The translations under genes and the position numbers were made by a program. Under the pieces are notes generated by a model that was not told the DNA's origin, ran no database searches, and saw only the letters and a program-made list of their open reading frames with translations. From Xenococcaceae cyanobacterium MO_167.B27 (lineage in GTDB: Bacteria > Cyanobacteriota > Cyanobacteriia > Cyanobacteriales > Xenococcaceae), in contig JASJCP010000029.1 of assembly GCA_030065935.1 (NCBI GenBank), positions 1,798 to 65,797 of the forward strand: a stretch of 64,000 nt of DNA, in the 5' to 3' direction. This document shows positions 12,904-52,513 of this stretch, piece by piece (position 1 is the stretch's first letter; each line of letters begins with the position of its first letter).

Positions 12904-13000
12904 TGCTTTCTAATTAAACTCATAACGACTTCGTTTTAATATGATAACTAAATTTCACTCAGAAAAGCAACTTTTTAGCTAGAGGAAAAGTCAAGAGGTC

Positions 13001-19378: not shown

Positions 19379-19474
19379 AAGGATGAGGAATAAAGGATGA
19401 AGTATTAGGAAGGATAAATACCTCTTACGGATTGCGGATTGCCTTTTGCCTCACTCGGAACTCCTCATCCCTCA
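19379..19474. repeat. GGATGA(A/G)G / CCTCATCC element, copy B
   Basis: Reads aggatgaggaataaaggatgaag...ggataaatacctcttacgg...cctcactcggaactcctcatccctca. It lies immediately 3' of rnj. Confidence 0.65.
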
Positions 19475-19482
19475 GAAATGAT

Positions 19483-21243
19483 TTAAGATGCTACAGAAGC
19501 AGTCGCACTAGGACGTTTTCTTCTTCTAGCAGTTCTCGCCACTGGTTTTTCAGGAATTTGCAGCAAAAACACCAATAAAGGACGACTTTGCAACTCTCTT
19601 CTAATTAATCTTTGCAAGCTACCCTCGATTTCAATTTTTAATCCTGTCCAATCAACTTCTAGTTCTCCATCAATCTGACTAGTAAAGTTGTTCCAGCGAT
19701 CGCTTAAAGTGGTTTCGACAGCGCGACAAATAAGCTGTTGTAACAAAGAATGATCCATTGAAGTAACAACACCCCGTAAATGAGTTCCAGGGGTAGCAAC
19801 CAATTTACCAGACCAATCTACAGCCGTAGCTACTGTAATTACTCCATCTTCCGCTAACTGTTGTCTTTCTTTCAATACATTGTCGTGAACAATACCTGAA
19901 CGATCTACTAGTTCGATACCAGAAGGAACTTGTCCAGCTATCCCAATACTATCTTCTGTTAGCTCAATAATATCTCCGTTGTCGATCACAATCATGTTTT
20001 CTGAGGGAATACCCATGCTTTGAGCCATTTTGGCGTGCTGAACTAACATTCGATGCTCTCCGTGAACTGGGATAAAGAACTTGGGTTTAGTTAACGCCAA
20101 CATCAATTTATGGTCTTCCTGCGCTCCATGTCCTGAAACGTGAATTCCCTGCTGTTTCCCATAGACTACGTTTGCACCTTGCATCATCAGGCGGTCAATA
20201 GTATTCACTACTGCAATGGTGTTTCCTGGGATGGGATTAGCAGAAAAGATAATAGTATCTCCTTGTTTTACCTTGATCTGTCTGTGTTCTCCTTTGGAGA
20301 TACGGGTCATAGCTGCTAGGGGTTCACCCTGAGAGCCAGTGGTTAAAATCAGGGTTTTATCATCAGGAAAACTTCTCAACGACTTGATAGACTCAAACAA
20401 ATCATCAGGACATTTAATATAGCCTAAATTCCTGGCATGAGCGATCACATTGAGCATTGATCGCCCTACTACCATCACTTTTCTTTGGTGTTTCTGAGCT
20501 AATTGCAAAATGATATTAACTCGATGTACCGAAGACGCAAAAGTTGTCACCATAATTCGCCCTTCTGCTTGAGCAAATATACGGTCTAGATTGGGATAAA
20601 CGGAACTTTCCGAAGGGGTATGTCCTGGTACTTCTGCATTAGTGGAGTCACTCAACAAGCACAGTACTCCTTTTTCTCCATGTTCTGCTAGCTTTTGTAA
20701 GTCGTAGTGTTCTCCATCTATAGGGGTATGATCGATTTTGAAATCTCCTGTGTGAATAATCACTCCCAAAGGGGTATGAATCGCAACAGTAAAACTATCC
20801 GCAATGGAGTGGGTATTGCGAATAAACTCTACTAGAAAATGTTTACCTAGTCTCACTATTTCTCTAGGAACCACGGATTTTAGGCTTGTGCGATCACTAA
20901 CTCCCGCCTCTTCTAGTTTGTCTCGCAACAAAGTCATTGCCAAACGGGGTCCATAAATCACAGGAATATCAAACTGTTTGAGATGATATGCAATACCCCC
21001 GATATGGTCTTCATGTCCATGAGTGACTATCATTCCCTTGATTTTGTGGCGATTTTCTCTGATATAAGTCATATCAGGTAACACAATATTAACGCCGTGC
21101 ATTTCGTCTGTGGGAAAGGCTAAACCAGCATCTAATAAAATAATTTCATCTTCATATTCAAACACACAGGTGTTTTTCCCAATTTCATGGAGTCCACCAA
21201 GTGGAATAATCTTGATTGGGAGTTTTGTGGAATTTTTGCTCAT
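19483..21243 (-). CDS. rnj: Ribonuclease J
   Basis: 586 aa with the metallo-beta-lactamase motif HGHEDHIGG and beta-CASP architecture. The asd-dapA-rnj order matches the order I recall in Synechocystis. Confidence 0.9.
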   Translation of the reverse strand: MSKNSTKLPIKIIPLGGLHEIGKNTCVFEYEDEIILLDAGLAFPTDEMHGVNIVLPDMTYIRENRHKIKGMIVTHGHEDHIGGIAYHLKQFDIPVIYGPRLAMTLLRDKLEEAGVSDRTSLKSVVPREIVRLGKHFLVEFIRNTHSIADSFTVAIHTPLGVIIHTGDFKIDHTPIDGEHYDLQKLAEHGEKGVLCLLSDSTNAEVPGHTPSESSVYPNLDRIFAQAEGRIMVTTFASSVHRVNIILQLAQKHQRKVMVVGRSMLNVIAHARNLGYIKCPDDLFESIKSLRSFPDDKTLILTTGSQGEPLAAMTRISKGEHRQIKVKQGDTIIFSANPIPGNTIAVVNTIDRLMMQGANVVYGKQQGIHVSGHGAQEDHKLMLALTKPKFFIPVHGEHRMLVQHAKMAQSMGIPSENMIVIDNGDIIELTEDSIGIAGQVPSGIELVDRSGIVHDNVLKERQQLAEDGVITVATAVDWSGKLVATPGTHLRGVVTSMDHSLLQQLICRAVETTLSDRWNNFTSQIDGELEVDWTGLKIEIEGSLQRLIRRELQSRPLLVFLLQIPEKPVARTARRRKRPSATASVAS

Positions 21244-35160: not shown

Positions 35161-37596
35161 ATGACTAATAGTTTTGCTGAACAAACTGTTGTCAATACGA
35201 AACCCCTAATTGAATTAAATAATCAGGGACAGATTCAAAGATTCGAGTTGACCAGAAATACCCACCACTTGGGAAGACTTGCAGAATGGTCCGATCTTCT
35301 AGTACCTGTAGATTGGAACGTCATATCTCGTAAACAAGCAGTAATTCAAAGAGAAGGTACAGATTATCGGATTTATGACGGCGATCGCGAAAATCCTAGT
35401 GGTAATGGTATGTTTATTGATAATACTCGCATTACTCTTTCGGAGGGATATCTCCTTAAACATGGGGTACAACTCTACATCGGACAAGACCCTCGTTATC
35501 AAATTATCCTGAGATACATTAACTCTAAGAGTAGTTCTCAGATCACTGTACCTAGTAGGCGCAAGCTGAATTTAAGTGGCTTAGAAGGTCGTGTAGAATT
35601 GGGTCGCTCTCCTCAACCCAATAACTATTATTCAATGCAGTTGGATGCACCCACAGTATCACGATTGCACGCTACTATCTATCTTGATGGGAAGGGTGGT
35701 CATATCCTGCAAGACCACAGCACTAATGGTACTTTTGTCAATGGCACAAGGCTAGAGCACAAAGTTCTACTCAAGCGAGACGATACCATTCAAATCGGCC
35801 CTTATATTCTTATTTATACAGGAGAATCTCTAGAATTAAATAACGCTACTAATAATATTCGTCTTGATGCTCATCAACTGTGTCGTAAAGTTAAAGATAA
35901 AAATAAACAAGAAAAAATAATTCTTAATAATCTGTCTTTGGCGATCGAACCAGGACAGCTAGTGGCTTTGGTGGGGGGTAGTGGCGCAGGAAAATCAACT
36001 TTAATGAAATCCTTATTAGGAATTGCACCTCTTTCTTCTGGAGAAGTTTTTTTGAATGGAGATAATCTGGCGCAAAATTGGGGGATCTATCGTTCTCAAA
36101 TTGGCTATGTTCCTCAAGAGGATATTATTCATTACAACTTAACTGTCAAGGAAGTTTTGACCTATGCTTGTCGGTTGCGCCTTCCTCCTGATACAGATAT
36201 TGAGCAAGTAGTTAGCAATACCCTAGAGCAAATTAAGTTATCTCATGTTGCTAATACCTTAGTTAGTCAACTTAGTGGCGGACAAAGAAAAAGAGTCAGT
36301 ATTGGAGTAGAGTTATTGGCAGACCCTAAACTGTTCTTTTTGGATGAACCAACTTCAGGGCTTGATCCTGGTCTGGATAAGGAAATGATGGAGTTGTTGC
36401 AAGAACAAGCTCAACGGGGTAGAACTATTGTATTGATAACTCATGCTACAGCAAATATCGAAGTATGCGATCGCATTGCCTTTCTGGGTTTGGGAGGGAA
36501 TCTCTGTTATTTTGGCCCTCCCAAAGGAGCTTTAAGTTTTTTTCAAATGCCGAAAATAGATTTTAAATATTTTGCCGATATTTATCTCAAACTCAATGAA
36601 GGTAAAGCTAAAGTAGAAGAATGGTCCAGAAAATATCTTAGTTCTCCTCAGTATTCTGCTTATATTAAAAATACTCTTAGCCCAGGAAAGCAAGAACAAC
36701 AAACTACAGATACGGCGATTAAAACTGGTATTTCCCCAATTAAACAACTATGGTTATTGTGCCAACGTTATTGGCAATTAGTAATAGGCGATCGTACTAG
36801 TTTAATATTGGCTTTATTATCTGGTCCCATCACGATTCTTCTAACTAGTTTCTCTTTAGGAGAAGAGCAACCCCTAAGTTTTATTAATAATTCCCCAGAT
36901 ATTACTCAAGCTTCTTTGGCTCTACGTTTACTATTTATTTTTAGTTGTATTGCCATCTGGATTGGACTTTCTAATTCTATTCAAGAAATTGTCAAAGAAT
37001 CTGCTATTTATTTTCGAGAAAGATTACTTAATTTAGGTTTAATTCCCTATGTTGGATCAAAATTAATTATTCGGGGGGGAATGGCGATCGCTCAAACCCT
37101 ACTGATGACTTTAGCTATTCTAGTATTTGAAGCTCCTGAATCAGATTTAATTAATTGGTATGGAGGATTTGCGATTACTACAGCTTTAACTTTAATAGCT
37201 AGTACAAGTTTAAGTTTAATGCTTTCTGCTGCTGTTAAAGATATTAATAAAGGCAATAGTCTGCTACCTTTGATTATGATTCCCCAGATTATTTTATCAG
37301 GAGTATTATTTATTTTTGAGGCTGAAACTTGGTCTAGTAAACTTTCCTGGTTGACCTTAAGTCGCTGGTCAGTAGCAGCCTATGGAGCTTTAGTCGATGT
37401 TAATTCTATAGCCCCAGAAATGCCAGACATGAATGAGTTATCTCAAATATTTCAACCTAGTGATGTTTATACTGCTAGCTGGGAAAACTTACTATTAAAC
37501 TGGGGAATACTATTAGTTCATGCTGTACTTTATTTTATTGCTACTTTAATAATTCAAAAAAGCAAAGATATATTAGTTTTATCTAAAAAAAAATGA
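35161..37596 (+). CDS. ABC transporter with two N-terminal FHA domains, an ATPase domain and an ABC-2-type permease domain (Rv1747-like architecture)
   Basis: 811 aa. FHA1: LGR...ISRKQAVI...SGNG. FHA2: LGRS...VSRLHATI...STNGT. Walker A GGSGAGKST, signature LSGGQRKR, Walker B FFLDEPTSGLD, then about 6 TM segments. Confidence 0.9.
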   Translation: MTNSFAEQTVVNTKPLIELNNQGQIQRFELTRNTHHLGRLAEWSDLLVPVDWNVISRKQAVIQREGTDYRIYDGDRENPSGNGMFIDNTRITLSEGYLLKHGVQLYIGQDPRYQIILRYINSKSSSQITVPSRRKLNLSGLEGRVELGRSPQPNNYYSMQLDAPTVSRLHATIYLDGKGGHILQDHSTNGTFVNGTRLEHKVLLKRDDTIQIGPYILIYTGESLELNNATNNIRLDAHQLCRKVKDKNKQEKIILNNLSLAIEPGQLVALVGGSGAGKSTLMKSLLGIAPLSSGEVFLNGDNLAQNWGIYRSQIGYVPQEDIIHYNLTVKEVLTYACRLRLPPDTDIEQVVSNTLEQIKLSHVANTLVSQLSGGQRKRVSIGVELLADPKLFFLDEPTSGLDPGLDKEMMELLQEQAQRGRTIVLITHATANIEVCDRIAFLGLGGNLCYFGPPKGALSFFQMPKIDFKYFADIYLKLNEGKAKVEEWSRKYLSSPQYSAYIKNTLSPGKQEQQTTDTAIKTGISPIKQLWLLCQRYWQLVIGDRTSLILALLSGPITILLTSFSLGEEQPLSFINNSPDITQASLALRLLFIFSCIAIWIGLSNSIQEIVKESAIYFRERLLNLGLIPYVGSKLIIRGGMAIAQTLLMTLAILVFEAPESDLINWYGGFAITTALTLIASTSLSLMLSAAVKDINKGNSLLPLIMIPQIILSGVLFIFEAETWSSKLSWLTLSRWSVAAYGALVDVNSIAPEMPDMNELSQIFQPSDVYTASWENLLLNWGILLVHAVLYFIATLIIQKSKDILVLSKKK

Positions 37597-40215: not shown

Positions 40216-43200
40216 TTAAGCTTTAATAAAGATATCAGCAGATGTTAGATTGGGGCTGCCATTGAGATTAGCGATCGCTATAGCCGAATTGTTACCAGTA
40301 CCATCTACATCAAAGAACAAGTTACCAGTAGTATTATCATAGATAAAGCGATCGCCGTTATCTAAGGCTGCTGTTCCAACTACAAATTGTGCCGAAGCAA
40401 TTACACTATTAGCAACTAGTCCCCCACCAAAGCCAGAAGCAGAGAAAACCAGAGTATCATCACCTGCTCCAAAATCAGTAATTTGATCTCCTACTTCACC
40501 TAATTGATTGAAGACAAAGCGGTCATCCCCATTACCTCCTGTGAGAGTGTCTGAACCAATACCACCAATTAAACGGTCTGAATTACTATCACCGATTAAT
40601 ACATCATTGCCTCTATTCCCAACTAGGGTATCATCACCTTGACCACCTTCTAGAGGATCATTTCCCTGATTACCCCACAAGTGATCGTTGCCATTACCGC
40701 CAAATAAAGCATCATTTCCTTTACCACCTACTAGGGTATCATCACCATCCCCACCAAATAAGTTATCGTTACCGTTTTGTCCTTCTAGAAGATCGGGTTG
40801 ATTTAAACCTTTCAGGGTATCGTTATTAACACCACCAATGAGGGTGTCATTTCCTGTTGCACCTTCTAAGATGACATCCATAGTAGTAACCGCAGAAGCA
40901 TCTAATAGATTATTACCTGCACCACCTACTAAACGAGCTAACTCAAATTCACTAATAGTATCTGTACCTCTAGCGATTAACTGGGTATCAGTAAGTAGAA
41001 AATCAGAGTTGTTAATTTCTACCAGACGGTCATATCCAGCACCACCAATTATAGTATCGTTTCCATTACCACCACGGAGAGTGTCATTACCATTTCCGCC
41101 ATCTAAACTATCTATTCCTCCTTCTCCAAAGAGATTATCATTTCCTTCTCCTCCTATGAGAGTGTCATTCCCGTTACTAGCATTGATCAGGTCATTTCCT
41201 TCTCCTCCGTCTAGCAAATCTTTTCCTTTATTGCCACTGAGAGTATCATTCCCACTATTCCCAAAGATGCTGTCATTATCATCTCCGCCAAAGATGCTGT
41301 CATTATCATCTCCACCAAAGATAGAATCACTACCAGTTGCGCCAAAAATAGTATCGGCACCTGTAGCACCATCGATCCAGTCATCACCGCTACCACCATT
41401 AAAGAAGTCGTTACCTGCTGCTCCAATTAGCCGATCGTTTTGATTCCCACCATTGAGAGTATCATCACTATCACCACCAATGAGAGTATCAGAGCCATCA
41501 TTTCCATTGAGGATATCTGATTGTTCATTCCCCTCAAGAAGATCGTTCCCCTCTCCTCCATTGAGAGTATCTTGTCCAGTACCACCAACTAGAGTATCGT
41601 TACCATTGCCTCCGATTAAACTATCATTCCCAATACCGCCCTCTAAACTATCATCGTTGTTCTTACCGTCTAGGGTGTCGTTACCTCCTAAGCCAATGAT
41701 GTTATCTTTATCTGCTGTACCATTCAGTAGATTTGCATTGGCATTCCCAGTGATAATACTGGGGAAAGCTTCTGCAATATTGAGAATTTGATTGACACCA
41801 ACGTTATTTAAAATTGTAGTTTCACCAGAGGGCCATTGTACCTCAAGTGTACTGATAGTGGTGTTTTGACCCAAACCAAAGTGTAATCTAGAGGTATTTT
41901 GAGCGAAGACATGAACACCCCCATTTTGTTCTCGAAGTTGAGTTACACCATCGGGAGTAGTTACGAGGACTCTTGCACCAATAGCATCACGATTAGATTG
42001 AATACCTTGTAAATCTATTTCAATCCACTTATTAGTATTGCCGTTGATTCCTTCTTGATTCTGGAAGAGTTGGGAAGGAGTGCCTAAATAGGTTTTACGG
42101 GGAGATCTAGCAGTAGTAGAACCTGCAAAGATATCTAGGAAACCATCATTATCATAATCTGCAACGGCTAGTCTTTGCCCTACTTCAAAATCAAGACGAT
42201 GGGGACCTACTTCCCCGCTAGATGCTCCTCCAGCTAATTCTACTTTAGTAAAGTTACCATTACCATCATTTTCGTAGAGGATATTGGATTGATTAAAACT
42301 AGGATAGGCATTAGCAAGATAGATATCTAAATCCCCATCGTTGTCAAAGTCCCCTGTTACAGCAGACTGAGCTAAAGTAGGGTCACTAAGTCCTGCCAGA
42401 ATAGTTCGGTCTTCATAGGTGCCAGAGTTAGGATTATAAACTAAAAATTGGTCAGACAGAGCCAAACTATCAGGGTCAGCAGAAGTAAAATTGATTTCGG
42501 TTAAATCAGTAATGGCTTGATTTGACTCGACAGCAATGCGGACAATTTCGCTAGTAGTTGAAGAAACTCGCACTTCCCAAGTTTGGGTATTGGGATTGTA
42601 TCCGATATAAATACCCCTTGCAGAGCGGTTATTTTTAAGACCAACAACAGTAGAATCATTGGGGTCAAGTTGGAAAGCAGCACTACTATGATTATGTCCT
42701 GAATGATCTTCCCCACAAAAAGGACAAGCATCGCTACCAGAAGTTAAATTGGGGTCATAACCAGAACTAAAAATAGCGTCTAATTCCGCTTGTGTCGGAT
42801 TTCTGCCACTTGCACCAATAAAGATATTATTAGCATCAAAACTTCCCAAACTCCCACCTTGACTATTGAAATTAAAAAATCCAGAAGCAATCAGCCCTTC
42901 GGAATTTAATAAGTCAAAAGCAAATACTCCCTGGGTTTTGAAGCTGACCCCAATTTCTCCCCCAGTTTGCATAATTAAATCGGCGGAAACAATGGTATCA
43001 CTACCTTGAAAAACACTGGCTTCGGGAGTAAAAATGCGAGAGCGAGTTAAAAAGATATCGTTGTAACCATCGTTGTTGAAATCAGCAAGAATCGAATCTC
43101 TAGCTGAACTATGATCGGCAAAATCAAAAGAAGGATCAGTTGGCGGTGAATTACTGATTTGAGGGATAGTATCGGTAACATCAACAAAAGTATTACCAGA

Positions 43201-43917
43201 AGAAAAATCATAAACTCCCAGGGGCCAAGTATAAGTACCCTGAATTACTAAATCTAGTTTGCCATCTCCTGTTAAGTCTGCTAACTGTGCATAGCGAGAA
43301 GACTCATTTACATCTAAACCTACATCAAAGGTGCGGTCAATAAATGTACCATCAGATTGCTGTTCAAAATATGCTGTGTAGCCTTGGTTATCTTCTCTTA
43401 ATGCGGTTACTATTACCACATCAAGTAAACCATCATTATTACCATCAAACCAGACAGAAGAACGACTACGGGCGATCGCATTTTCTAAGCCTCTAACGTC
43501 TGCTTCATTTTCTAAATTACCGTTATTATTAACAAATAACTTATTACTTAAAAGAGATAAATCAACACCGCTAACATCCCCTAGTCTTCCTCCACCAGCA
43601 GCTAAGAAATCTTGATCTCCATCGTTATCAAAATCAATCCAAGTTGTACCATGAACATCCCCCCCCGCACCTTGTCGCCAGTCTGAATCAAACAGATTAG
43701 TAAAAGTTCCATCTCCATTATTTATATACAAATAAGGATATTTTCCATCGGGATATTGGGGAGATTTTCCGTTGTAACCATGTCCACTAATCCAAAGGTC
43801 TTGTAAACCATCGTTGTTATAGTCTAACCAAGCAACACTAAAAGCTTCATTACCTTTTTGTCTTGACCAATCAATACCAGCACTGGCTGCTACTTCTTTA
43901 AAAGAGTTTGAATTCAT
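40216..43917 (-). CDS. Large secreted FG-GAP/VCBS-repeat (ASPIC/UnbV-like) protein with a long RTX-type calcium-binding repeat region
   Basis: 1233 aa. The N-terminal half has repeated DxDxDGxxD FG-GAP-like motifs. The C-terminal half has dozens of GGxGxDxL nonapeptides. Confidence 0.85.
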   Translation of the reverse strand: MNSNSFKEVAASAGIDWSRQKGNEAFSVAWLDYNNDGLQDLWISGHGYNGKSPQYPDGKYPYLYINNGDGTFTNLFDSDWRQGAGGDVHGTTWIDFDNDGDQDFLAAGGGRLGDVSGVDLSLLSNKLFVNNNGNLENEADVRGLENAIARSRSSVWFDGNNDGLLDVVIVTALREDNQGYTAYFEQQSDGTFIDRTFDVGLDVNESSRYAQLADLTGDGKLDLVIQGTYTWPLGVYDFSSGNTFVDVTDTIPQISNSPPTDPSFDFADHSSARDSILADFNNDGYNDIFLTRSRIFTPEASVFQGSDTIVSADLIMQTGGEIGVSFKTQGVFAFDLLNSEGLIASGFFNFNSQGGSLGSFDANNIFIGASGRNPTQAELDAIFSSGYDPNLTSGSDACPFCGEDHSGHNHSSAAFQLDPNDSTVVGLKNNRSARGIYIGYNPNTQTWEVRVSSTTSEIVRIAVESNQAITDLTEINFTSADPDSLALSDQFLVYNPNSGTYEDRTILAGLSDPTLAQSAVTGDFDNDGDLDIYLANAYPSFNQSNILYENDGNGNFTKVELAGGASSGEVGPHRLDFEVGQRLAVADYDNDGFLDIFAGSTTARSPRKTYLGTPSQLFQNQEGINGNTNKWIEIDLQGIQSNRDAIGARVLVTTPDGVTQLREQNGGVHVFAQNTSRLHFGLGQNTTISTLEVQWPSGETTILNNVGVNQILNIAEAFPSIITGNANANLLNGTADKDNIIGLGGNDTLDGKNNDDSLEGGIGNDSLIGGNGNDTLVGGTGQDTLNGGEGNDLLEGNEQSDILNGNDGSDTLIGGDSDDTLNGGNQNDRLIGAAGNDFFNGGSGDDWIDGATGADTIFGATGSDSIFGGDDNDSIFGGDDNDSIFGNSGNDTLSGNKGKDLLDGGEGNDLINASNGNDTLIGGEGNDNLFGEGGIDSLDGGNGNDTLRGGNGNDTIIGGAGYDRLVEINNSDFLLTDTQLIARGTDTISEFELARLVGGAGNNLLDASAVTTMDVILEGATGNDTLIGGVNNDTLKGLNQPDLLEGQNGNDNLFGGDGDDTLVGGKGNDALFGGNGNDHLWGNQGNDPLEGGQGDDTLVGNRGNDVLIGDSNSDRLIGGIGSDTLTGGNGDDRFVFNQLGEVGDQITDFGAGDDTLVFSASGFGGGLVANSVIASAQFVVGTAALDNGDRFIYDNTTGNLFFDVDGTGNNSAIAIANLNGSPNLTSADIFIKA

Positions 43918-44560: not shown

Positions 44561-44893
44561 TTACAAATTGCTGTCTAACATGGTTTGTAGCTGTTGTTTG
44601 CCAATTGCTCCTTCATGGGAAGCAACAATTTGCTTATCTTTAAAAAGTCTTAAAGCTGGTACTCCTTCAACTTTACATTTAGCTACTGATTCGGGATTGG
44701 GATCTACTTCTAGTTTAATTACTTTTAGGCGATCGCTGTAAGTAGCAGCTACCCAACTAACGGAAGGAGACACCAGACGACAAGGGCCACACCAAGATGC
44801 CCAAAAATACACTAGTACTGCTTTATCCGTTGTCTCAACTTCTTGTTCAAACTCAGAGTCAGCAATTTCAATTACACTACTCATTAACAGCAC
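44561..44893 (-). CDS. trxA: Thioredoxin
   Basis: About 107 aa with a WCGPC active site. Confidence 0.9.
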   Translation of the reverse strand: MLLMSSVIEIADSEFEQEVETTDKAVLVYFWASWCGPCRLVSPSVSWVAATYSDRLKVIKLEVDPNPESVAKCKVEGVPALRLFKDKQIVASHEGAIGKQQLQTMLDSNL

Positions 44894-44953
44894 TCCAATT
44901 ATTCACAACAGATTGCATAGTAGCGGATTGAGTTACTTATTGAAAGTTTAGTG

Positions 44954-45718
44954 CTAGTTATCTTTTTTCAATTGAGAGCGCAACTGTTCGAGTTCATCAT
45001 CAATTTCGCTTTTCGCTGTATTAGTTTCAGCAGCAGGTAAGGATTGCTGATCAGGAGCAGAACCAGATAAACTTGCTTTCATTGCTGCTAGCTCGTCTTC
45101 AATACCACTGCTTGATTCTAAGGCTGCAAACTGCTGTTCTAGACCGACACCTTCCAATTCTGCTACAGATTGAGATTGTGCTTCTAGTTGCATCACCTTA
45201 TCTTCCATTCTCTCAAAAGCACTCATAGCACTACTGGTGTCGATACTGCCAATACTTTCTTGGAGTTGTTTTTGAGCTTTAGCAGCATTAGCTCTGGCTT
45301 TGAGCATATCTTTCTTGGTTTTGGCTTCCGAGATTTTGCTTTCTAAAGCAATCAAATTTCGCTTCAGGGTATCGACGTTAGCAGTTTGTTGATCTAACTG
45401 TACTTTGAGAGTACCTGCGGTATCACTAAAAGACTTTTTCCGCATTAAGGCTTCACGGGCTAAACTTTCGTCTCCTTTTGACAAAGCCAATTGCGCTCTT
45501 TGTTGCCAAGTATTAGCTTCTTGTTGATTTTTATTATATTGTTGTTCGGTTCTTTTTTGGCTGGCGATCGCTCTTGCTACAGCTTGGCGCAACTGTACCA
45601 AGTCTTCTTGCATATCGACTACAGCTTGTTCTAGTACTTTTTCTGGGTCTTCTGCTTTGCTCACTAAGTCATTCATGTTAGCTCGAACAACTCTGCTAAG
45701 ACGATCAAATAATCCCAT
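44954..45718 (-). CDS. vipp1: Vipp1 / IM30 (PspA family, membrane remodelling)
   Basis: MGLFDRLSRVVRANMNDLVSKAEDPEKVLEQAV at the N-terminus. A C-terminal extension ending in IDDELEQLRSQL resembles the Vipp1-specific helix. Confidence 0.8.
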   Translation of the reverse strand: MGLFDRLSRVVRANMNDLVSKAEDPEKVLEQAVVDMQEDLVQLRQAVARAIASQKRTEQQYNKNQQEANTWQQRAQLALSKGDESLAREALMRKKSFSDTAGTLKVQLDQQTANVDTLKRNLIALESKISEAKTKKDMLKARANAAKAQKQLQESIGSIDTSSAMSAFERMEDKVMQLEAQSQSVAELEGVGLEQQFAALESSSGIEDELAAMKASLSGSAPDQQSLPAAETNTAKSEIDDELEQLRSQLKKDN

Positions 45719-45898
45719 GACCTTTCTCTATCCTTGAAAATAAGTAACGACTTTATACCATGGTAGTAGCAAACCTATAGACTCTAGTTTGCAAGATGTG
45801 AGATAGTAATAATTTGAATTACTCTTGACTCCCACATTCCTAGTTTGACATATTTTTCTTGTCTAACGTGAAGCGCGGAGTTAGTAGGTGAAATTTTT

Positions 45899-46129
45899 TC
45901 ACTCTTCTGGTTCAACTATAGACTTAAGTGTTTTTGAATCGTTTGCAGCATTTAGAACAATCTTTGATAGCTGTTCTATTTCTGTAGCAAGTATTTGTCC
46001 AGCAACAGCAGCAATATAAATTCCAATCGTAGCAGCAACTAAAAAGTATTCCCCTGTAATTGCTTCTGAATTTTGGCTATATTTTGCATAAGCAAAGTAT
46101 AAAGTAGCAATGGCACCGAATAATACCAA
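45899..46129 (-). CDS. Small two-TM hypothetical protein
   Basis: 76-aa hydrophobic ORF. Confidence 0.35.
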   Translation of the reverse strand: MVLFGAIATLYFAYAKYSQNSEAITGEYFLVAATIGIYIAAVAGQILATEIEQLSKIVLNAANDSKTLKSIVEPEE

Positions 46130-46215
46130 CTTTATCCAACGCGACCATTGTCAAATTAACTCCCTTGTAAAGAAAGCTCTTTTTCTGAAGCAATATTCAA
46201 TCAAGTGTGAATAAT

Positions 46216-47139
46216 TTAAGTAACATTCAAAGCACCATGTTTTTTCAGCCATTGCTTTTGTTCATCGGTTAAACCATGGCTATCAGTGAAAACCGCCCCA
46301 TCCACATTACAATTGTCAAATATCACATTTTGGCAAACAGTCTTTTCAAAATTGCTATCTTGTAAATTAGCATTTGTCAGATTGATATGACTGAGTTTTG
46401 CTCCTTCTAGATTTGCTGATAATAGGGAGCTATGACTGAAATTAATTTGGTTTAGTTGAGCCTTACGAAAATCTGCTTCTAGTAATTCTGCTTGGGTAAA
46501 GTTAACTGTATCTAATTGAGCTTGAATAAATTTAGAGTTTACTAAACTAGCATCTATAAAATCAGCGTTACTAATATTGGCTTGTGTCAGATTCGTATTT
46601 TGTAAATTAGCTTTGTGCCATCTAGAATCATTGATATTTGCACTTTGTAAGCTAACATTTGTAACTGTGGCTCTTTCAAAATTGATTTGAGTAAACTTGG
46701 TTTTTACTAATAAAGCTTTGCTGAGATTAGCTCCACTAAAATTAATGTTTGCTCCTGAAGCTTCTCGTAAATCTGCTAGGGATAAATTAGTATTAATTGC
46801 TCTAACCCCATCTAACCTAGAATTAAATAATTTAATCTTGTAGCAATTGGCATCATCCAGAATAGCTTTATTTAAAGTAGCACTATTTAGTTCAGTTCTT
46901 TCAAGATTAGCTTGAGATAGGTTAGCATAACTTAAATCAGCAAACATTAAATTAGTCCTTGTAAAATTAGTTTTATGACAAGAAGCTTCTACTAACTTAG
47001 CTCCTCGCATATAACATTCAATAAATACAGCTTCATCTATATTGGCATTTTCTAAGTTGAGTCTGCTTAGTTCTGCCTCTTTAAAATTATATCCTGCTTG
47101 GATTTTTTGTAGAACAGCCTCTCTCGTAAATAAAGTCAT
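46216..47139 (-). CDS. Pentapeptide-repeat protein
   Basis: Long run of A(D/N)LxX pentapeptides. I prefer the start MTLFTRE at 47139, 2 nt after the upstream stop. Confidence 0.85.
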   Translation of the reverse strand: MTLFTREAVLQKIQAGYNFKEAELSRLNLENANIDEAVFIECYMRGAKLVEASCHKTNFTRTNLMFADLSYANLSQANLERTELNSATLNKAILDDANCYKIKLFNSRLDGVRAINTNLSLADLREASGANINFSGANLSKALLVKTKFTQINFERATVTNVSLQSANINDSRWHKANLQNTNLTQANISNADFIDASLVNSKFIQAQLDTVNFTQAELLEADFRKAQLNQINFSHSSLLSANLEGAKLSHINLTNANLQDSNFEKTVCQNVIFDNCNVDGAVFTDSHGLTDEQKQWLKKHGALNVT

Positions 47140-47141
47140 TT

Positions 47142-47756
47142 TTACTGATAAAAATAAGCTAGAAATATATGAAAGGCTAACATGATAAAAAATATGCTCA
47201 CTAAAATAATATGAGTATTTAACCAAAAAGCACGCATACCTTTTACCATATTACCTTTGGATATTCCTGCTATAGTTTTTCCGTCAGGATTTTGGGTATA
47301 AATCCAAGTCAAAAATCTTTTTTGAGGTGATTCTAGAACTCCTGCTTCTGCTACTACACCAATCAATGCAGAAAGGTTAACTGCAAAAAATATCCATAAA
47401 AAAATAGCATTAAAATTTAATCCAGTTGCGCCAATAGTATGAATTAAAACTATACTTAACAAGCTAACACCCAGAAAAATATGTAGCCTGCGCCACAACT
47501 GCATTGAACCTGGAATTGTTATTTTGACTATCCAGCCTCGCCCTCTTTTACGAGCAGTCAACACCATTTCTAGGATGACAAAAGCCAGAGCAATATAACC
47601 AGTGATTTGTTTATAAAGATTGTCTTCTAGAAATAGCAGAGTGCTAAAAGCTTTCTCTCTTAAAATCGGAATATATATCGAACTGAAAGCAAAAGGAGTA
47701 AGAATTGCTGCGGATAATAATGTCAGGATAATTAAAGTGGAAAACTTGGGTTTCAT
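47142..47756 (-). CDS. Polytopic membrane protein with two His-x13-His pairs (ferric-reductase-like, putative di-heme-b electron conduit)
   Basis: 204 aa with about 5-6 TM segments. LHIFLGVSLLSIVLIH and THIILVSIFFIMLAFH each place two His 13 residues apart (hand-counted) within a hydrophobic helix. Confidence 0.6.
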   Translation of the reverse strand: MKPKFSTLIILTLLSAAILTPFAFSSIYIPILREKAFSTLLFLEDNLYKQITGYIALAFVILEMVLTARKRGRGWIVKITIPGSMQLWRRLHIFLGVSLLSIVLIHTIGATGLNFNAIFLWIFFAVNLSALIGVVAEAGVLESPQKRFLTWIYTQNPDGKTIAGISKGNMVKGMRAFWLNTHIILVSIFFIMLAFHIFLAYFYQ

Positions 47757-47864
47757 AGCTTTTTTAAAAGCTGTTAGTGGTTAGTGCTTAGTGGTTCGTG
47801 GTAAGTGGGAGGGTATCCGCAATTGATGAATTATCCGAGAGCTTGGTTAGTAATTAGTAGTCAA

Positions 47865-48524
47865 TTAACTTTTATTAATAGGTAGGTTAATAATGACACC
47901 TCCCATCACATCATCTAACTTGAATTTTTTATCTGGATAAAGTTCGAGGTGAATAGGATGAGTGTTGTGACAGGTAACACAAGCTTCTGCTACCGCTTTG
48001 TCAGGATAAAGAGCGGAGAAGTATTTTTGACCGCCAATTTCTTGATATTCTTTGTATGGTTCGCCTGTTTTATTTACTTCTTCCATGGCTCTCTTTTCAA
48101 AATCCGACTTGGGTGCATGGTTATCATTGAGATTCCAGGTGGAAATTAGGTTATAGGTAAAACCAATACCTTTTTCTTCGGATGTTTCAGCAGCAATTTC
48201 TGAACCCAAGCGGAACATTTGAGCAGGTAGGGGAATACCGCCAGTTTCTTCCCAGCCTTCAGTAGCTTCAGCAGGAACAACGCCTTTTGCCTTGGTTTTC
48301 CCTTCTAGGGTTTTGAGTCTGTTAACTACGTGCTTGGTGTAAGCAGTTCTATCTGCAAGCAGTACAGTATGAATATAATCTACTACCACTTCGGGAGGAA
48401 TACCAGGGGTAGCTTGGGTTGAATTAACAGTACCACTACAAGCGATCGCAGTAAAGCAAATAGTTGTAGCTAGAGCTATTAAGCCTATGGCTTTAGTTTT
48501 AATTTTACTGATTAGTTTGTCCAT
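47865..48524 (-). CDS. Tll0287-like (DUF3365) c-type heme protein, lipoprotein or secreted
   Basis: 219 aa with a signal peptide and Cys (AIACSG) and a single CVTCH near the C-terminus. The overall pattern resembles DUF3365. Confidence 0.65.
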   Translation of the reverse strand: MDKLISKIKTKAIGLIALATTICFTAIACSGTVNSTQATPGIPPEVVVDYIHTVLLADRTAYTKHVVNRLKTLEGKTKAKGVVPAEATEGWEETGGIPLPAQMFRLGSEIAAETSEEKGIGFTYNLISTWNLNDNHAPKSDFEKRAMEEVNKTGEPYKEYQEIGGQKYFSALYPDKAVAEACVTCHNTHPIHLELYPDKKFKLDDVMGGVIINLPINKS

Positions 48525-48554
48525 TGCGAATATGATTTTGTTGAGTTTAGTTAT

Positions 48555-49355
48555 TTACTGAGTCTGTTGGCTTGACCTTTTCTTTTCTAAATCCCGCACT
48601 AATTTAAAGGTTGGCAATTCTAGACTCGGAGGATGAGCAAAGTTAGCTTCGACTAATTCATCGTCGAAAATGCTATTGTAGGCGTGTTCTAAGCCGTGAC
48701 AGTTCATGCAAACCTCTTTGACCATGCGATCGCGTGGTTTGAGTGTATAAGTGTTGTTATGATTTACTAAAACCCCATCTCCAGATACTTCCCTGGGTAA
48801 GTGACAGGTTGCACAAGTTACAGACTTGGAGTCAGGACGTGGTAAGACCCCAATATCTGCAACAATTTGGGCGTGAGGAGAGTTTTTATAGTTGAGAGAA
48901 TGGGTGTCATTGTGACAAGACAAGCAAGAATCTACTGATGCTTGATAGGTATTGACCGTATGTACGTTATGACAACTGTTACAGTTCATTTGCTTGTCCA
49001 GTGCTGATTTTTTCATTGGCAAATGAGCCATTGTGGGACTTAGAGGTGACAAGCCTTCGAGGGTGCGAATACCATGTTTTCCTAAAAGGAAAGTGTCTGT
49101 ACTATATTCATGACAGCTTTTACAACTTACTTCGGTGGGTTTGGCTCTAAAAGCTTTGCTTTTTTCATCAATATGACAACTAGAACAATTGACTTCGTTT
49201 AAAGCATGAATACTACTTTGCCACTGCTGTTGGATTTCTTGTAGTTGACTCTCGGAGATGTTACTTGCAAAAGATGTACCAGGAAAAACCCAAGAAAAGA
49301 GGAATAGCAAACACAAAACCATTACGGTTACGCTGTCTTTCTTCCTTCTCATCAT
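48555..49355 (-). CDS. Hexa-heme c-type cytochrome (secreted)
   Basis: Signal peptide plus six CxxCH motifs: CSSCH, CKSCH, CNSCH, CLSCH, CATCH, CMNCH. Confidence 0.85.
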   Translation of the reverse strand: MMRRKKDSVTVMVLCLLFLFSWVFPGTSFASNISESQLQEIQQQWQSSIHALNEVNCSSCHIDEKSKAFRAKPTEVSCKSCHEYSTDTFLLGKHGIRTLEGLSPLSPTMAHLPMKKSALDKQMNCNSCHNVHTVNTYQASVDSCLSCHNDTHSLNYKNSPHAQIVADIGVLPRPDSKSVTCATCHLPREVSGDGVLVNHNNTYTLKPRDRMVKEVCMNCHGLEHAYNSIFDDELVEANFAHPPSLELPTFKLVRDLEKKRSSQQTQ

Positions 49356-49966
49356 GACTTTCCTCCTATAAATTCCTTACCCAAATCTGGCTTGGGGGCA
49401 GTATCTAATTTGGTTTTCACGACTATATTGGGTAATTCTGGTTCGGGTAACATCCAAGGCTGGTCGAGATTTTGCCGTAAAAAGCCAGTGGAAATAGAAC
49501 GATGATCGTGAAAATTATGACAGCCAGCCGTCCAACAGCCATTGGGACTAAAGCCATTATGACTGGCTAATTCCCCTTTAATAATTCCTTGATGACAAGC
49601 CATACACAAGTCTGGCTTAAGATGTACCCCTCGACCAAACATATGGGTATGTTCTTCATGACAAGCGGTACAACTTAGGACATCAATGTTTTCCCGTAAT
49701 TCAGCCCAGCGAGGATCGCGAAACTTTTTCGCACCGTGTACATCTTTTGCTAATTCTGCTTCGTGACAGCGATTACAAGTCTCATTACTTACAGGCTTAA
49801 AGCCTTCGTGACAAGAACTGCAAGAAACTTCAAATAAAACATGACCATTAGAAGTTTCCCCTGGTAAAAACACACTACGGCGATCAAGGGCGAAAGCAGA
49901 ACTCAGTATCAACAAGAGCATTAGCATCACCCCTATAATGGCGAACTTTGAGTTGAAAAACGCCAA
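49352..49966 (-). CDS. Multiheme c-type cytochrome (four CxxCH plus one CxxxxCH)
   Basis: CSSCH, CNRCH, CTACH and CMACH plus CWTAGCH, with an N-terminal TM/signal segment. The stop overlaps the next gene's start (ATGA at 49352-49355). Confidence 0.85.
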   Translation of the reverse strand: MAFFNSKFAIIGVMLMLLLILSSAFALDRRSVFLPGETSNGHVLFEVSCSSCHEGFKPVSNETCNRCHEAELAKDVHGAKKFRDPRWAELRENIDVLSCTACHEEHTHMFGRGVHLKPDLCMACHQGIIKGELASHNGFSPNGCWTAGCHNFHDHRSISTGFLRQNLDQPWMLPEPELPNIVVKTKLDTAPKPDLGKEFIGGKS

Positions 49967-50008
49967 TGGTTGAAAAATTCTCCCTAAGTTATTTGCCAGT
50001 ACTTATCT

Positions 50009-50641
50009 CTATAACAGCAAAGCTAAAATCGCTGCGATTATCCCCATAATTCCGCCACCACCCATAGCATATAATATTGCTTTATCTGTATCGGGTATCA
50101 TTACTATTTCCGCAGTCATAGAGGCTTGAGAATTAGATTTTTCAAGGGATGGTGGTTCAGATACAAATTCAGATACATATGAGGAAGATGTATTAACATT
50201 AGCGGATGGCGATTTTAGAGCAATATCATTTTGGGAATAGTCAGCACCATCAAGCATCATCTGGCTAATTGTTGCATAAGCATCAATCCAAGCTTGTTTC
50301 ACATCTGGTGTCCATTTATCTTTTAGATACTGCTCGAAAGTAGTTAGTAAAGCATTTCCTACTAAGGGATAATGTTCAGGTAATGCACCATATTTAATAT
50401 GACGCGCCCCTAAGCCTCTGAGGGTATCATCTAATACTTCGGGCTTCCGTAAGTTTTCTACTACCAGCACTAAAGAGCCTAGTAATTTTTTCTTCTGCTC
50501 TGTCATGTTAGTAGTTGCAAATAAAGGTTTGGCTTCAGGATTAGCTGTAAATAGATTGTTATAGAAGCTATTGACAAAATCATTTGCACTGGGCTTAATT
50601 GCTTCAAAACTCTGTTCTAGGAGTTCTACCTGTAAGGACAT
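50009..50641 (-). CDS. Globin-domain protein with a C-terminal transmembrane anchor
   Basis: Globin fold signature (SFEAIKP...F..FY..LF...P....LF...LGARHIKYG) in aa 1-135, then a linker and a C-terminal hydrophobic tail (GGGGIMGIIAAILALLL). Confidence 0.75.
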   Translation of the reverse strand: MSLQVELLEQSFEAIKPSANDFVNSFYNNLFTANPEAKPLFATTNMTEQKKKLLGSLVLVVENLRKPEVLDDTLRGLGARHIKYGALPEHYPLVGNALLTTFEQYLKDKWTPDVKQAWIDAYATISQMMLDGADYSQNDIALKSPSANVNTSSSYVSEFVSEPPSLEKSNSQASMTAEIVMIPDTDKAILYAMGGGGIMGIIAAILALLL

Positions 50642-51342
50642 TCGGATTAATTCCCCTTTTTAATTAATTTATGGATTTTGGTTGAAACTAACAGTCTTAG
50701 TTGGATTTAAAGTTTAAAAGACAGTTTTCATTGAATGTTTTTGAATTGCATTGGCATTGGTGTTAGATGTCTTGTCTTATCTGGATGTCAAGACGTTAGC
50801 AAGATTTATAAAATATCTATTTATGGTATTTTGTAGCAAAGTTTACCATTATCCTTAAATAATCTAAATATCGTATAGGTTTAATGCTTTTTTGACATTT
50901 GCAACCAACTTACTGTTCCAAACCCCAACTCTACTCCTTGATTAATCAGAATTACTCAAATTTATCAAGAACTGTGGAGCCTTATTACCAGTGCTTTACC
51001 AGAGGTTGATTTTGACAGGTTTTCTCTCGGTTTTTTAGGGGGAATATCTGTAGGGTGTAGGAAAAATTCTTGACTATGATAATTTTTATTTAAGTCTTTC
51101 TAGCTACTTAAATAATATCAAAAACTTCGATTCGCTAAACTTAAGCTTTTATGTTACGTTTGTGAACCCCAAATTTCATATTAAATACTATATAATGTAA
51201 CAAGTTAACATAATGAATTTATATAGTAATTTTGCAGCTAATCTTTGAGTTTATATAAAGTCTTGTATCTCTTCTTTGCCAGATTAAAGCTTAAGGCAAT
51301 ATTTTATATAACAATCTTGCAAACCAACATCATTGATTAATT

Positions 51343-51609
51343 ATGGATACTGTAAAAGATAACCGTTTTGTTTGGTTTAATCGAGGTAAATTACTAGCTA
51401 AGTTAGGAAAATTAGAAGCTGCTTTAGATTGCTTTGATCGCGCTATTGCTATGAAAGAGAGTTACTATGAGGCATGGTGTGAAAAAGGATGTGTACTGGA
51501 AGAATTGGGGCGCGTTAGAGAAGGAGAAATTTGTTTTAATAAGAGTCTAGGCGCATTTTGTGGTGATATTAGTCTGAGTTTGGAAGACGATTTATTATCA
51601 ATCTCCTAA
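51343..51609 (+). CDS. Small TPR-repeat protein
   Basis: 88 aa with two TPR-like units (W.N.G..L..LG..E.AL..FD.A). Confidence 0.5.
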   Translation: MDTVKDNRFVWFNRGKLLAKLGKLEAALDCFDRAIAMKESYYEAWCEKGCVLEELGRVREGEICFNKSLGAFCGDISLSLEDDLLSIS

Positions 51610-51724
51610 GAACTTTTGACAATTATTTTGGCTCTTGTTATTAATTAGCCCAACCTATACCGAGTTGCATTGTAATTTATTATTTATGTTATCCCCCCGT
51701 TAAGAGGGATTAAATAAACAGTAT

Positions 51725-52513
51725 TTAACGGCTGACAATTCCTGACCACTGTACCTTTTTCTCTTTGGTACGACGATAGGAGAAAAAATAATCTGGCTGT
51801 TGATAGGTACAATAGGGAGCAATGGAAATTTGTGATTCTTTTATACCTAGCTGTTGCATTTGGATCCCATTAACTCGCCTGACATCTAACCTGACTCTTC
51901 CTGGGTGGGAATCTTCTAGTATAGGAGAATCGGGTAATTGAAATAGGGCTTGTAGAATATCTGACTCTGTAGACGAGACGATACTTTTCCCGACTTCTAC
52001 TGCTACTGTTTCAGAAACTTGATATACTTCCCCTGAAATAGCAGGACCCATAGCAATGCGTAAATCTGAGATAGTGCTACCATGGTTTTGGAGTAGAGCG
52101 ATCGCTCTTTGAACAATTTTTTTAGCTGTACCACGCCAACCAGCATGAACTGCTGCTACTTTACCCGTTTTCATGTCTGCAATCAAAACAGGGTTGCAAT
52201 CTGCACTAGCTACCCAAGGAGATTGTTTGTTTCCCTTGACTAGAATCCCATCTGCTTCAGGAAAACTGCTGCTTTGATCTATGGTGCTGCTAATTTCTTC
52301 TGGAGTTAAAACTATATTGCCATGCACTTGTTTGGCTCTATAGACTGTAGCTTCTGTATCCAAAGCTGTTACTAACTGTTCGGGGGTATGGGGGTAACAC
52401 TGTTGAGTAAAAAATCCATGTTGCCAAGGTGCTAGTAAATCACAAGTTAGATAAGGTAATCCTTGCCACTGTTGCCATTGCCAACCAGAATTTATATTGT
52501 TGATTTCTACCAT
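51725..52513 (-). CDS. pgeF: Peptidoglycan editing factor PgeF (YfiH / laccase-domain, DUF152 family)
   Basis: ADCNPVL, VHAGWRG and the C-terminal SYRR are family motifs. Confidence 0.8.
   Translation of the reverse strand: MVEINNINSGWQWQQWQGLPYLTCDLLAPWQHGFFTQQCYPHTPEQLVTALDTEATVYRAKQVHGNIVLTPEEISSTIDQSSSFPEADGILVKGNKQSPWVASADCNPVLIADMKTGKVAAVHAGWRGTAKKIVQRAIALLQNHGSTISDLRIAMGPAISGEVYQVSETVAVEVGKSIVSSTESDILQALFQLPDSPILEDSHPGRVRLDVRRVNGIQMQQLGIKESQISIAPYCTYQQPDYFFSYRRTKEKKVQWSGIVSR

Follow-up and report, generated by a model that had tools for sequence, protein, structure and literature searches.

A conserved cluster of haem-protein genes

The window analysed here is a stretch of 64,000 nucleotides (nt) from Xenococcaceae cyanobacterium MO_167.B27 (contig JASJCP010000029.1, positions 1,798 to 65,797). 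Our homology searches likewise assign the organism to the Pleurocapsales/Xenococcaceae. An initial annotation had described six minus-strand genes at 46216-50641 of this window as a single operon rich in haem proteins, encoding a tail-anchored globin, a pentahaem and a hexahaem cytochrome c, a Tll0287-like c-haem protein, a putative di-haem-b membrane protein, and a pentapeptide-repeat protein. We found the open reading frames (ORFs), strand, and coordinates to be as described (Table 1). The intergenic gaps of 42, -4, 30, 108, and 2 nt were also correct, and the ATGA overlap of the pentahaem and hexahaem genes could be read directly in the sequence. The proposed total of 15 possible haem sites held, with one in the globin, five in the pentahaem protein, six in the hexahaem protein, one in the Tll0287-like protein, and two in the membrane protein. 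Pfam scores exceeded the cut-offs (in brackets) for Globin at 67.9 bits (22), Cytochrom_c3_2 at 31.9 for the pentahaem and 42.8 for the hexahaem protein (25), Tll0287-like PF11845 at 69.7 (24.1), and Pentapeptide at 153.9 (20.2). The haem Cys and His residues of the c-haem proteins were 100% conserved in 73 to 76 orthologues. The haem-motif pattern is far beyond what chance would give.

Table 1. Coordinates of the gene cluster and its putative promoter elements in the window
Feature	Position	Strand	Remarks
Tail-anchored globin gene	50009..50641	-	Globin domain at residues 1-135, low-complexity linker, predicted C-terminal transmembrane helix at 192-210
Pentahaem cytochrome c gene	49352..49966	-	TTG start; exported or anchored; four CxxCH and one CxxxxCH
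Hexahaem cytochrome c gene	48555..49355	-	Exported; HAO/NrfA-type scaffold without catalytic haem
Tll0287-like Cache-fold c-haem lipoprotein gene	47865..48524	-	CVTCH at 182-186; no candidate axial Cys
Membrane protein gene	47142..47756	-	Five long helices; His92/His106 in transmembrane helix 3, His182/His196 in transmembrane helix 5; predicted di-haem-b protein
Pentapeptide-repeat gene	46216..47139	-	307 amino acids (aa), cytoplasmic; ATG at 47139; accessory gene of the cyanobacterial cluster
NtcA-type box GTAAACTTTGCTAC (GTA-N8-TAC)	50833..50846	-	About 190-205 nt upstream of the globin ATG
-10-like hexamer TATAAA	50805..50810	-	22 nt downstream of the NtcA-type box

In a scan with one genome per species, the membrane protein was found in 86 species, and 80 loci were kept. 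These are apparently all cyanobacterial, most being named as such and a few labelled only "uncultured bacterium". Carriers include Pleurocapsales, Moorena, Coleofasciculus, Okeania, Roseofilum, Spirulina, and Symploca, as well as Leptolyngbya PCC 7375 and its relatives, Acaryochloris, and Pseudanabaenaceae. Across 80 other cyanobacterial species, the order globin, pentahaem cytochrome, hexahaem cytochrome, Tll0287-like (Cache-haem) lipoprotein, and membrane protein was kept in 79 of 79 usable loci. This bears out the proposal that the genes form one conserved unit, with the exception of the pentapeptide-repeat gene. In the window, the latter is 2 nt from the membrane protein gene. Its link to the cluster is loose, because a pentapeptide-repeat protein of about 307 to 310 aa is encoded near the cluster in only 26 of 39 long loci and on either strand. 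The initial annotation had taken multihaem c cytochromes to be uncommon in cyanobacteria, but the cluster is not rare there, with at least 86 species having it.

The globin gene was directly upstream of the pentahaem gene in 65 of the 67 cyanobacterial loci that could be tested, and 53 of these 65 globins had a hydrophobic C-terminal tail. The number of globin domains varied among the orthologues, with one (41 orthologues), two (35), three (4), or four (1) in tandem. Arrays of three or four domains on a single C-terminal anchor were encoded at L027:5771-7714, L025:1602-3149, L079:5985-7508, L074:684-2315, and L082:5665-7413. In addition, 11 cyanobacterial loci have another globin gene after the membrane protein gene (seen in L010, L013, and L017; e.g., L001:10643-11194). 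Its product is soluble, has about 180 aa, and shares 47% identity with the first globin. The window has no such gene.

A dedicated ResB and CcsA pair for system II cytochrome c maturation is encoded beside the cluster in 33 of 39 long cyanobacterial loci. These flanking proteins are unusually long, at about 600 aa for ResB and 570 aa for CcsA (L001:3900-5714 and 12157-13905, and most of L008-L086). The pair may be needed for haem attachment to the multihaem proteins or to the CxxxxCH motif. We searched the 64-kb window for it and did not find it, so maturation of the c-haem proteins in this organism must use genes elsewhere.

Recent horizontal transfer of the cluster was considered and rejected, because base composition is native and identity drops gradually with cyanobacterial distance. 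The GC content and third-position GC content (GC3) of the six genes are within the range of the neighbouring housekeeping genes, with the two multihaem genes slightly higher (GC3 of 0.38 for the hexahaem and 0.35 for the pentahaem gene, versus 0.25 to 0.31 for neighbouring genes).

Proteins of the cluster

The globin ends in a hydrophobic 19-mer (Kyte-Doolittle 2.2), and its closest solved relatives are Hell's Gate globin I, Vitreoscilla haemoglobin, and flavohaemoglobins. We assigned positions Y27, Q49, and H81 by alignment to 3s1i. TyrB10 (Y27), GlnE7 (Q49), HisF8 (H81), and TyrG5 (Y91) were 99 to 100% conserved in 132 cluster-linked globin domains. The NCBIfam model of flavohaemoglobin (Hmp) covers residues 10-131 with E=6.9e-21, at a score of 74.6 bits where the cut-off is 432. 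No FAD/NAD(P)H reductase domain was found in the globin, whose C terminus is made up of the linker and the transmembrane helix. Its sequence places it in the flavohaemoglobin-like 3/3 single-domain lineage, and its TyrB10/GlnE7/HisF8 pocket is of the type found in nitric oxide (NO) dioxygenases. It therefore shares with Hmp a homologous globin domain and the four conserved residues, but it differs in lacking the reductase domain, in having a C-terminal membrane anchor, and in occurring as one to four tandem domains in orthologues.

The motifs of the pentahaem protein are CSSCH, CNRCH, CTACH, CMACH, and CWTAGCH, and the hexahaem protein has six of the CxxCH type. Both have a hydrophobic N terminus, which in the hexahaem protein includes a cleavage-type site (SFA/S). 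Together with the lipobox Cys of the Tll0287-like protein, the Sec-type signal of the hexahaem protein and the hydrophobic N terminus of the pentahaem protein agree with the earlier placement of the c-haem proteins outside the cytoplasm. In non-cyanobacterial homologues, the two cytochromes are a single 11-haem ORF with an identical order of motifs, including the CxxxxCH, and 74 of 76 complete fused ORFs from metagenome loci had 11 motifs. This fusion shows that the pentahaem and hexahaem proteins of the window are one unit. In an alignment of 82 sequences, exactly eleven near-invariant non-motif His residues accompany the eleven haem motifs, five in the pentahaem part and six in the hexahaem part. 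We looked for a CxxCK motif in the cytochromes, and there was none.

A family profile of the six-haem half was collinear with Kuenenia hydroxylamine oxidoreductase (HAO) 4n4j over 181 positions (E=4.2e-9). Six of the seven HAO motifs in the aligned stretch pair with the six hexahaem motifs. The fourth HAO motif, GCAHCH, which we take to hold the catalytic P460 haem, lies opposite a conserved "PMKxx" without Cys, so there is no haem at that position. The last two haems of the hexahaem protein resemble haems of NrfA and octahaem nitrite reductase (ONR). We also compared an AlphaFold model of a fused homologue (predicted local distance difference test [pLDDT] score of 90) with solved structures using Foldseek. 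The only near-significant matches were two HAOs, 6t5e (E=6e-3, probability 1.00) and 1fgj (E=2.5e-2), at a TM-score of just 0.27. From these alignments and the model, we conclude that the cytochrome has its origin in the HAO/NrfA family and has lost the catalytic haem.

Thus, the six-haem half is like HAO, NrfA, and ONR in its collinearity with HAO, but it lacks the catalytic haem (the fourth motif of HAO, the CxxCK haem of NrfA), every haem has a distal His, and five haems have been added at the N terminus. Because all 11 haems have a conserved second His and no catalytic haem is present, we read the cytochrome as a wire and not an enzyme. The initial annotation needs correction on this point, as the multihaem proteins look like pure wires. 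Two fused 11-haem homologues from metagenome-assembled genomes of Thermoanaerobaculia and Verrucomicrobiota (P0433 and P0437) have the NCBI label "NrfA- nitrite reduction protein". That label is probably misleading, since the family has neither CxxCK nor another evident catalytic haem.

The single CxxCH (CVTCH) of the Tll0287-like protein was invariant in homologues, and its lipobox Cys29 was 99% conserved. The mature domain in the window has no Cys beyond the CxxCH, and the same was true of 54 of 54 complete metagenome domains. M103, M207, and H189 were invariant. Sequence and profile searches of the PDB with this protein did not retrieve Tll0287 (5B82). The position of the axial ligand therefore could not be mapped by alignment, and the absence of Cys was used in its place. 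The PF11845 family has been reclassified as Cache domains with c-haem (bioRxiv 10.64898/2026.02.01.703092). In the same study, the Cys/His-ligated stand-alone type was described as a redox protein, the stand-alone protein tested had a Cys ligand, and the Cys-less type linked to signalling bound NO tightly. The description of the cluster protein as a PAS-like sensor needs correction, because the domain is now classed as Cache and not PAS and stand-alone forms have no signalling output (bioRxiv 10.64898/2026.02.01.703092).

The protein in the window and its relatives are stand-alone yet Cys-less, and with Met103, Met207, and His189 invariant, a His/Met-ligated carrier and an open NO-binding site are both possible. 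They are like Tll0287 and sCache_heme (5B82; bioRxiv 10.64898/2026.02.01.703092) in belonging to PF11845 and in being extracytoplasmic and stand-alone with a single conserved CxxCH. Unlike Tll0287, they have no axial Cys, form a subfamily whose profile is too diverged to find 5B82, and in every case share their locus with genes for a multihaem cytochrome and a di-haem membrane protein. At a distance of 6 to 9 kb from the cluster, Pleurocapsa sp. PCC 7319 has genes for a Ser/Thr kinase and for a Cache-haem-HAMP receptor (L001:16350-17534 and 19393-20286). The architecture of the latter is that of an NO-binding receptor (bioRxiv 10.64898/2026.05.25.727664). We rejected this pair as a partner of the cluster because the neighbourhood is not conserved in other loci.

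The membrane protein has exactly four His residues (92, 106, 182, and 196), which form two H-x13-H pairs within predicted transmembrane helices. As the initial annotation had expected, they are kept in homologues. They were invariant in 23 full-length homologues, down to 23% identity, and 67 of 67 complete metagenome domains had exactly two such pairs. In an AlphaFold2 model (pLDDT score of 86), there are five long helices, two of which (85-107 and 167-203) contain the His pairs. The charge distribution, read by the positive-inside rule, predicts that the N terminus and two Lys/Arg-rich loops are cytoplasmic. With this topology, His92 and His182 would be near the inner face of the membrane and His106 and His196 near the outer face, and transmembrane helices 3 and 5 can sandwich one haem near each face. 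Therefore, the protein is predicted to be a di-haem-b transmembrane electron carrier with its N terminus in the cytoplasm.

The family of the membrane protein is small, with 68 representatives at E<=0.001 among 1.84 billion. The window protein scored 16.8 bits against DUF4405, below the cut-off of 26.7. Among 23 family members, 15 matched DUF4405 (best 9.7e-10) and 8 matched Ferric_reduct (best 1.5e-6), and Ni_hydr_CYTB was matched as well. Binding of haem b has been demonstrated for one member of DUF4405 (PMC11334425). The comparison with di-haem-b proteins of the ferric-reductase/NOX type thus stands in part. The His pairs are conserved, but membership in the ferric-reductase/NOX group was not established, and a structure search of the model was not significant (see below). 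The likeness to DUF4405 (PMC11334425), MsrQ, and NOX/STEAP is in two membrane-spanning His pairs on two helices, 13 residues apart; the difference is that five, not six, long transmembrane helices are predicted.

Relatives outside cyanobacteria and their nitrogen context

Outside cyanobacteria, we examined eleven contexts manually and eighty metagenome loci with a script. Relatives were abundant. Of the first 599 pattern matches in one metagenome scan, at least 411 were confirmed by tblastn. In its more distant homologues, the membrane domain has an N-terminal module of Pyr_redox_2, Rubredoxin_C, and BFD-[2Fe-2S]. In the inspected loci, the membrane domain was always encoded together with a homologue of both cytochromes and a Tll0287-like gene, and the Cache-haem gene always adjoined the membrane gene in distant homologues. 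In 64 of the 80 metagenome loci, the membrane domain came before the multihaem gene, and in 56 of these 64 it was demonstrably fused to the flavoprotein-BFD module. The globin gene followed the Cache-haem gene in 28 of 40 testable metagenome loci and preceded the flavoprotein gene in 5. The same quartet of genes was present on GC-rich non-cyanobacterial contigs, one of which encodes a globin 60% identical to that of the window. We considered the globin and the flavoprotein as alternative cytoplasmic modules, and this was ruled out because most of the metagenome operons have both. No Pyr_redox_2/BFD flavoprotein was found within 10 kb of the cyanobacterial clusters.

The initial annotation had envisaged a transmembrane electron conduit, and this now has strong indirect support, because most non-cyanobacterial homologues fuse the membrane domain to an NAD(P)H flavoprotein with a [2Fe-2S] module and follow it with an exported multihaem gene. 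With a flavoprotein on the cytoplasmic N terminus and c-haems that are exported, the membrane domain would conduct electrons across the membrane, and this is the best available evidence that it does so. The architecture of these proteins follows the logic of NADPH oxidases, with NAD(P)H, flavin, and [2Fe-2S] in the cytoplasm, the four-His helices in the membrane, and the c-haems outside. As in NOX, the flavoprotein-fused relatives run from NAD(P)H through flavin and two b-haems to the outside, but their flavin module is Pyr_redox_2 plus BFD, whereas that of NOX is FNR-type.

The surroundings of these loci point to nitrogen and NO. An ANTAR response regulator was encoded directly upstream in 8 of 35 testable metagenome loci, and ANTAR or assimilatory nitrate/nitrite reductase genes were present in 19 of 37 loci of at least 9 kb. 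One example starts with an ANTAR gene and goes on to genes for a di-iron protein, the globin, the 11-haem cytochrome, the Cache-haem protein, and the membrane protein; these are followed by genes for a cytochrome c, a ferredoxin, nitrite reductase, and nitrate reductase. In two metagenome loci, H-NOX is fused to the N terminus of the flavoprotein-membrane protein, and in two others an H-NOX gene is adjacent. The fused chains (L107:1970-4552 and L125:5322-7904) are 860 aa long and consist of H-NOX, the NAD(P)H flavoprotein, BFD [2Fe-2S], and the four-His domain. Such a fusion would place an NO-sensing haem directly on the transmembrane electron conduit.

In cyanobacteria, the link to nitrogen is upstream of the globin gene. 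An exact GTA-N8-TAC was present within -400 to +60 of the globin ORF in 43 of 63 orthologous loci. Dinucleotide shuffles gave 4.1 +/- 2.1 loci, with a maximum of 10 in 200 shuffles, so the enrichment is about tenfold. The same motif was present in 21 of 230 control windows (9%) taken from within the operon. The layout of box, about 22 nt, and TATAAA/TAN3T recurs in orthologous loci, and TAN3T was found 20 to 24 nt from the box in 20 loci, versus 0.5 in shuffles. The hexamer in the window, TATAAA, ends in A, not T. Taken together, the box, the spacing, and the putative -10 element match the layout of an NtcA-activated promoter. A scan of the operon for sigma-70 promoters and terminators gave results at chance level, a scan of 45700-51800 against Rfam gave no match, and the spacer upstream had no noteworthy repeats.

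The genes on either side (PspA/IM30, thioredoxin, YfiH-like, RluA-like, and others) have housekeeping roles with no relation to the cluster. Those for PspA/IM30 (Vipp1-like) and thioredoxin come immediately downstream, at 44561-45718 and on the same strand. These are membrane-stress and redox functions, and other genomes do not have them linked to the cluster. A 76-aa ORF (45899-46129) with one hydrophobic helix separates the pentapeptide-repeat gene from pspA. It is maybe not a gene, and it had no counterpart among 80 related loci. Further away, the window encodes a 1233-aa RTX/FG-GAP/ASPIC-UnbV repeat protein (40216-43917) and an 811-aa protein in which two FHA domains are fused to an ABC-2 transporter (35161-37596).

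Proposed role and alternatives

A globin needs a one-electron donor after each round of NO dioxygenation, and the donor gene is often linked (PMC3820574). In Bradyrhizobium, the narK-bjgb-flp-nasC genes provide a single-domain globin and a flavoprotein that clear NO arising from nitrate assimilation (PMC4724949). The operon represents, in cyanobacteria, a redox module of four parts that is widespread among bacteria. Our preferred reading, to which we give somewhat less than an even chance, is that it serves as a nitrogen-regulated NO detoxifier at the membrane, with a transmembrane haem relay. This reading builds on the gene content, conservation, fusions, motif arithmetic, and regulatory-motif enrichment described above. 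During assimilation of nitrate or nitrite, when NtcA is active, the tethered globin would turn by-product NO and O2 into nitrate. Each turnover would leave a ferric haem, to be re-reduced by way of the membrane protein's b-haem on the cytoplasmic side. Together, both b-haems would connect the globin to the 12 c-haems on the periplasmic or lumenal side, and these might act as an electron supply and buffer charged by soluble carriers on that side. The Cys-less Cache-haem would be a possible second NO-reactive site outside the cytoplasm. In heterotrophs, the fused flavoprotein would feed the same relay from NAD(P)H. Cyanobacteria would have lost the flavoprotein and anchored the globin instead, and such anchoring would be expected if the globin has to make contact with the membrane protein.

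What we infer in this scheme is that the proteins bind haem and form a complex, what the substrate is and, most of all, which way the electrons run. Several observations weigh against the scheme. The membrane, multihaem, and Cache-haem genes occur without a globin in several non-cyanobacterial loci, and the globin is therefore an add-on to a core module. Twelve of the 65 cyanobacterial globins have no membrane tail. When the model of the membrane protein was compared with the PDB by Foldseek, nothing significant was found; the best match had E=1.4, and the NOX5 transmembrane domain had E=4.6 with a TM-score of 0.20. The NtcA-type box is a consensus match and therefore a predicted site. In the fused relatives, electrons must start from cytoplasmic NAD(P)H and can go outward, so that the periplasmic haems may be a sink. 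Ferredoxin or FNR could reduce the globin without a relay, and with Met103 and Met207 invariant, the Cache-haem protein could be a plain electron carrier.

The direction of flow is reversed in the alternative that we take most seriously, although it is doubtful. Here, cytoplasmic electrons, from the NAD(P)H flavoprotein or, in cyanobacteria, from ferredoxin, would cross the b-haems and the 11-haem wire to a catalytic Cache-haem that reduces NO, nitrite, or hydroxylamine, and the globin would be a parallel, co-regulated scavenger. The flavoprotein fusion fixes entry from cytoplasmic NAD(P)H in most homologues, and the membrane, multihaem, and Cache-haem genes are an invariant core that is also found without the globin. 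The change of donor is in keeping with nitrate and nitrite reductases, which use ferredoxin in cyanobacteria and NAD(P)H flavoproteins in heterotrophs. The multihaem half comes from the HAO/NrfA enzyme family, and eleven haems would fit multi-electron chemistry, but the 11-haem protein has no catalytic-looking haem. The Cache-haem lacks a Cys ligand, as does the NO-binding class (bioRxiv 10.64898/2026.02.01.703092). However, the stand-alone type in that study is a redox protein and not an NO binder, the one tested having had a Cys ligand (bioRxiv 10.64898/2026.02.01.703092), and the invariant Met103 and Met207 could close the site. Outward reduction also leaves unexplained why the cyanobacterial globin is anchored and often has two to four tandem domains. 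The anchoring and the tandem multiplication thus favour a globin served by the relay, and the globin-less core loci favour outward reduction. The two could be combined in a two-sided NO-processing machine, in which the HAO-derived scaffold uses the Cache-haem lipoprotein in trans as an outer active site and the relay also serves the cytoplasmic globin. We consider this unlikely. If true, it would be the first globin with a transmembrane cytochrome chain as its redox partner, and NO detoxification in cyanobacteria would be wired to the electron pool of photosynthesis or of the periplasm and controlled by NtcA.

The other explanations are much less probable. Tethered high-affinity globins with a relay might scavenge O2 under nitrogen limitation, as an auxiliary oxidase that shields O2-sensitive nitrogen metabolism. 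A TyrB10/GlnE7 pocket gives high O2 affinity in related globins. Putative NtcA-type control and tandem globin arrays on a membrane tether would fit as well, as would an older proposal of this kind for the membrane-associated cyanoglobin of Nostoc (reference listed in PMC3820574). Yet outside cyanobacteria the genes around the module are those of nitrate assimilation and H-NOX rather than nitrogenase; globins reduce O2 poorly and produce superoxide; and no nif genes were seen beside the cluster in the inspected loci, though no search was aimed at nif. We therefore regard O2 scavenging as improbable. A redox or gas sensor, in which the Cache-haem protein and the globin detect NO, O2, or redox state and signal via the membrane or pentapeptide-repeat protein, is very improbable. 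Cache and globin domains are common sensor modules and relatives have H-NOX fusions, but Pfam and NCBIfam revealed no kinase, cyclase, HAMP, or DNA-binding output domain in the conserved genes, and eleven bis-His haems with an NAD(P)H flavoprotein are hardware for electron transfer.

We give the least credence to a role of the multihaem cytochromes in metal reduction or in extracellular electron transfer. The latter had been offered by the initial annotation, and nothing at the locus points to it. The cytochromes have a weak Pfam/NCBIfam likeness to MtrC/DmsE-type and c3/c7 cytochromes, and many cyanobacterial carriers bear the names of marine or mat-type genera or were recovered from metagenomes of that kind. 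However, the MtrC/DmsE and c3/c7 matches were below the curated cut-offs, no porin or outer-membrane cytochrome gene was present in any locus examined, and the gene context is nitrogen and NO, not metals. Of the functions listed in that annotation, handling of NO and nitrogen oxides is backed by gene context, but the others are not. The NtcA-type box, the ResB and CcsA pair of relatives, and the relatives with a fused flavoprotein had not featured in it.

In Geobacter CbcL/CbcBA, NrfH/CymA, and Qrc, a haem protein of the membrane likewise exchanges electrons with multihaem cytochromes in the periplasm, as would occur here. In contrast to those systems, homology is undetectable beyond generic CxxCH families, with NCBIfam scores far below cut-offs, there is no evidence of a quinol site, and the cytoplasmic partners are a globin and a flavoprotein. 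The closer parallel in physiology is Bjgb-Flp (PMC4724949), where the genes for a single-domain globin of the flavohaemoglobin type and for its presumed reductase belong together and are regulated jointly with nitrate assimilation. The window system has relatives that likewise carry an NAD(P)H flavoprotein (Pyr_redox_2, BFD), often beside ANTAR and nitrate/nitrite reductase genes. Unlike Flp, the flavoprotein, where present, is fused to the di-haem membrane domain and coupled to 12 exported c-haems, and the cyanobacterial form has no flavoprotein, a tail-anchored globin, and control apparently via NtcA. We found no published description of the gene cluster or of an HAO-derived wire in the full-text literature, a search whose coverage leaves out most subscription journals. 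All of the parts come from known families, and transmembrane haem conduits and globin-reductase pairs are known kinds of system, but the combination is apparently undescribed.

Cyanobacteria are generally credited with no more than a few mono-haem c-type cytochromes. At least 86 cyanobacterial species have an operon with 12 c-haems, 2 predicted b-haems, and 1 to 4 globin haems. The module is common in environmental bacteria, where it is usually flavoprotein-driven and often beside nitrate-assimilation genes. As read here, its cytochrome would show how nature has made a pure wire out of an enzyme scaffold (HAO). If the preferred reading, a nitrogen-regulated NO detoxifier with a transmembrane haem relay, is true, then the missing reductase has been identified for a large group of bacterial single-domain globins. 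It would also give a physiological context to stand-alone Cache-haem (Tll0287-like) proteins and to the DUF4405-like cytochrome b family, and the nitrogen cycle of sea and soil would gain an NO sink that is regulated by nitrogen.

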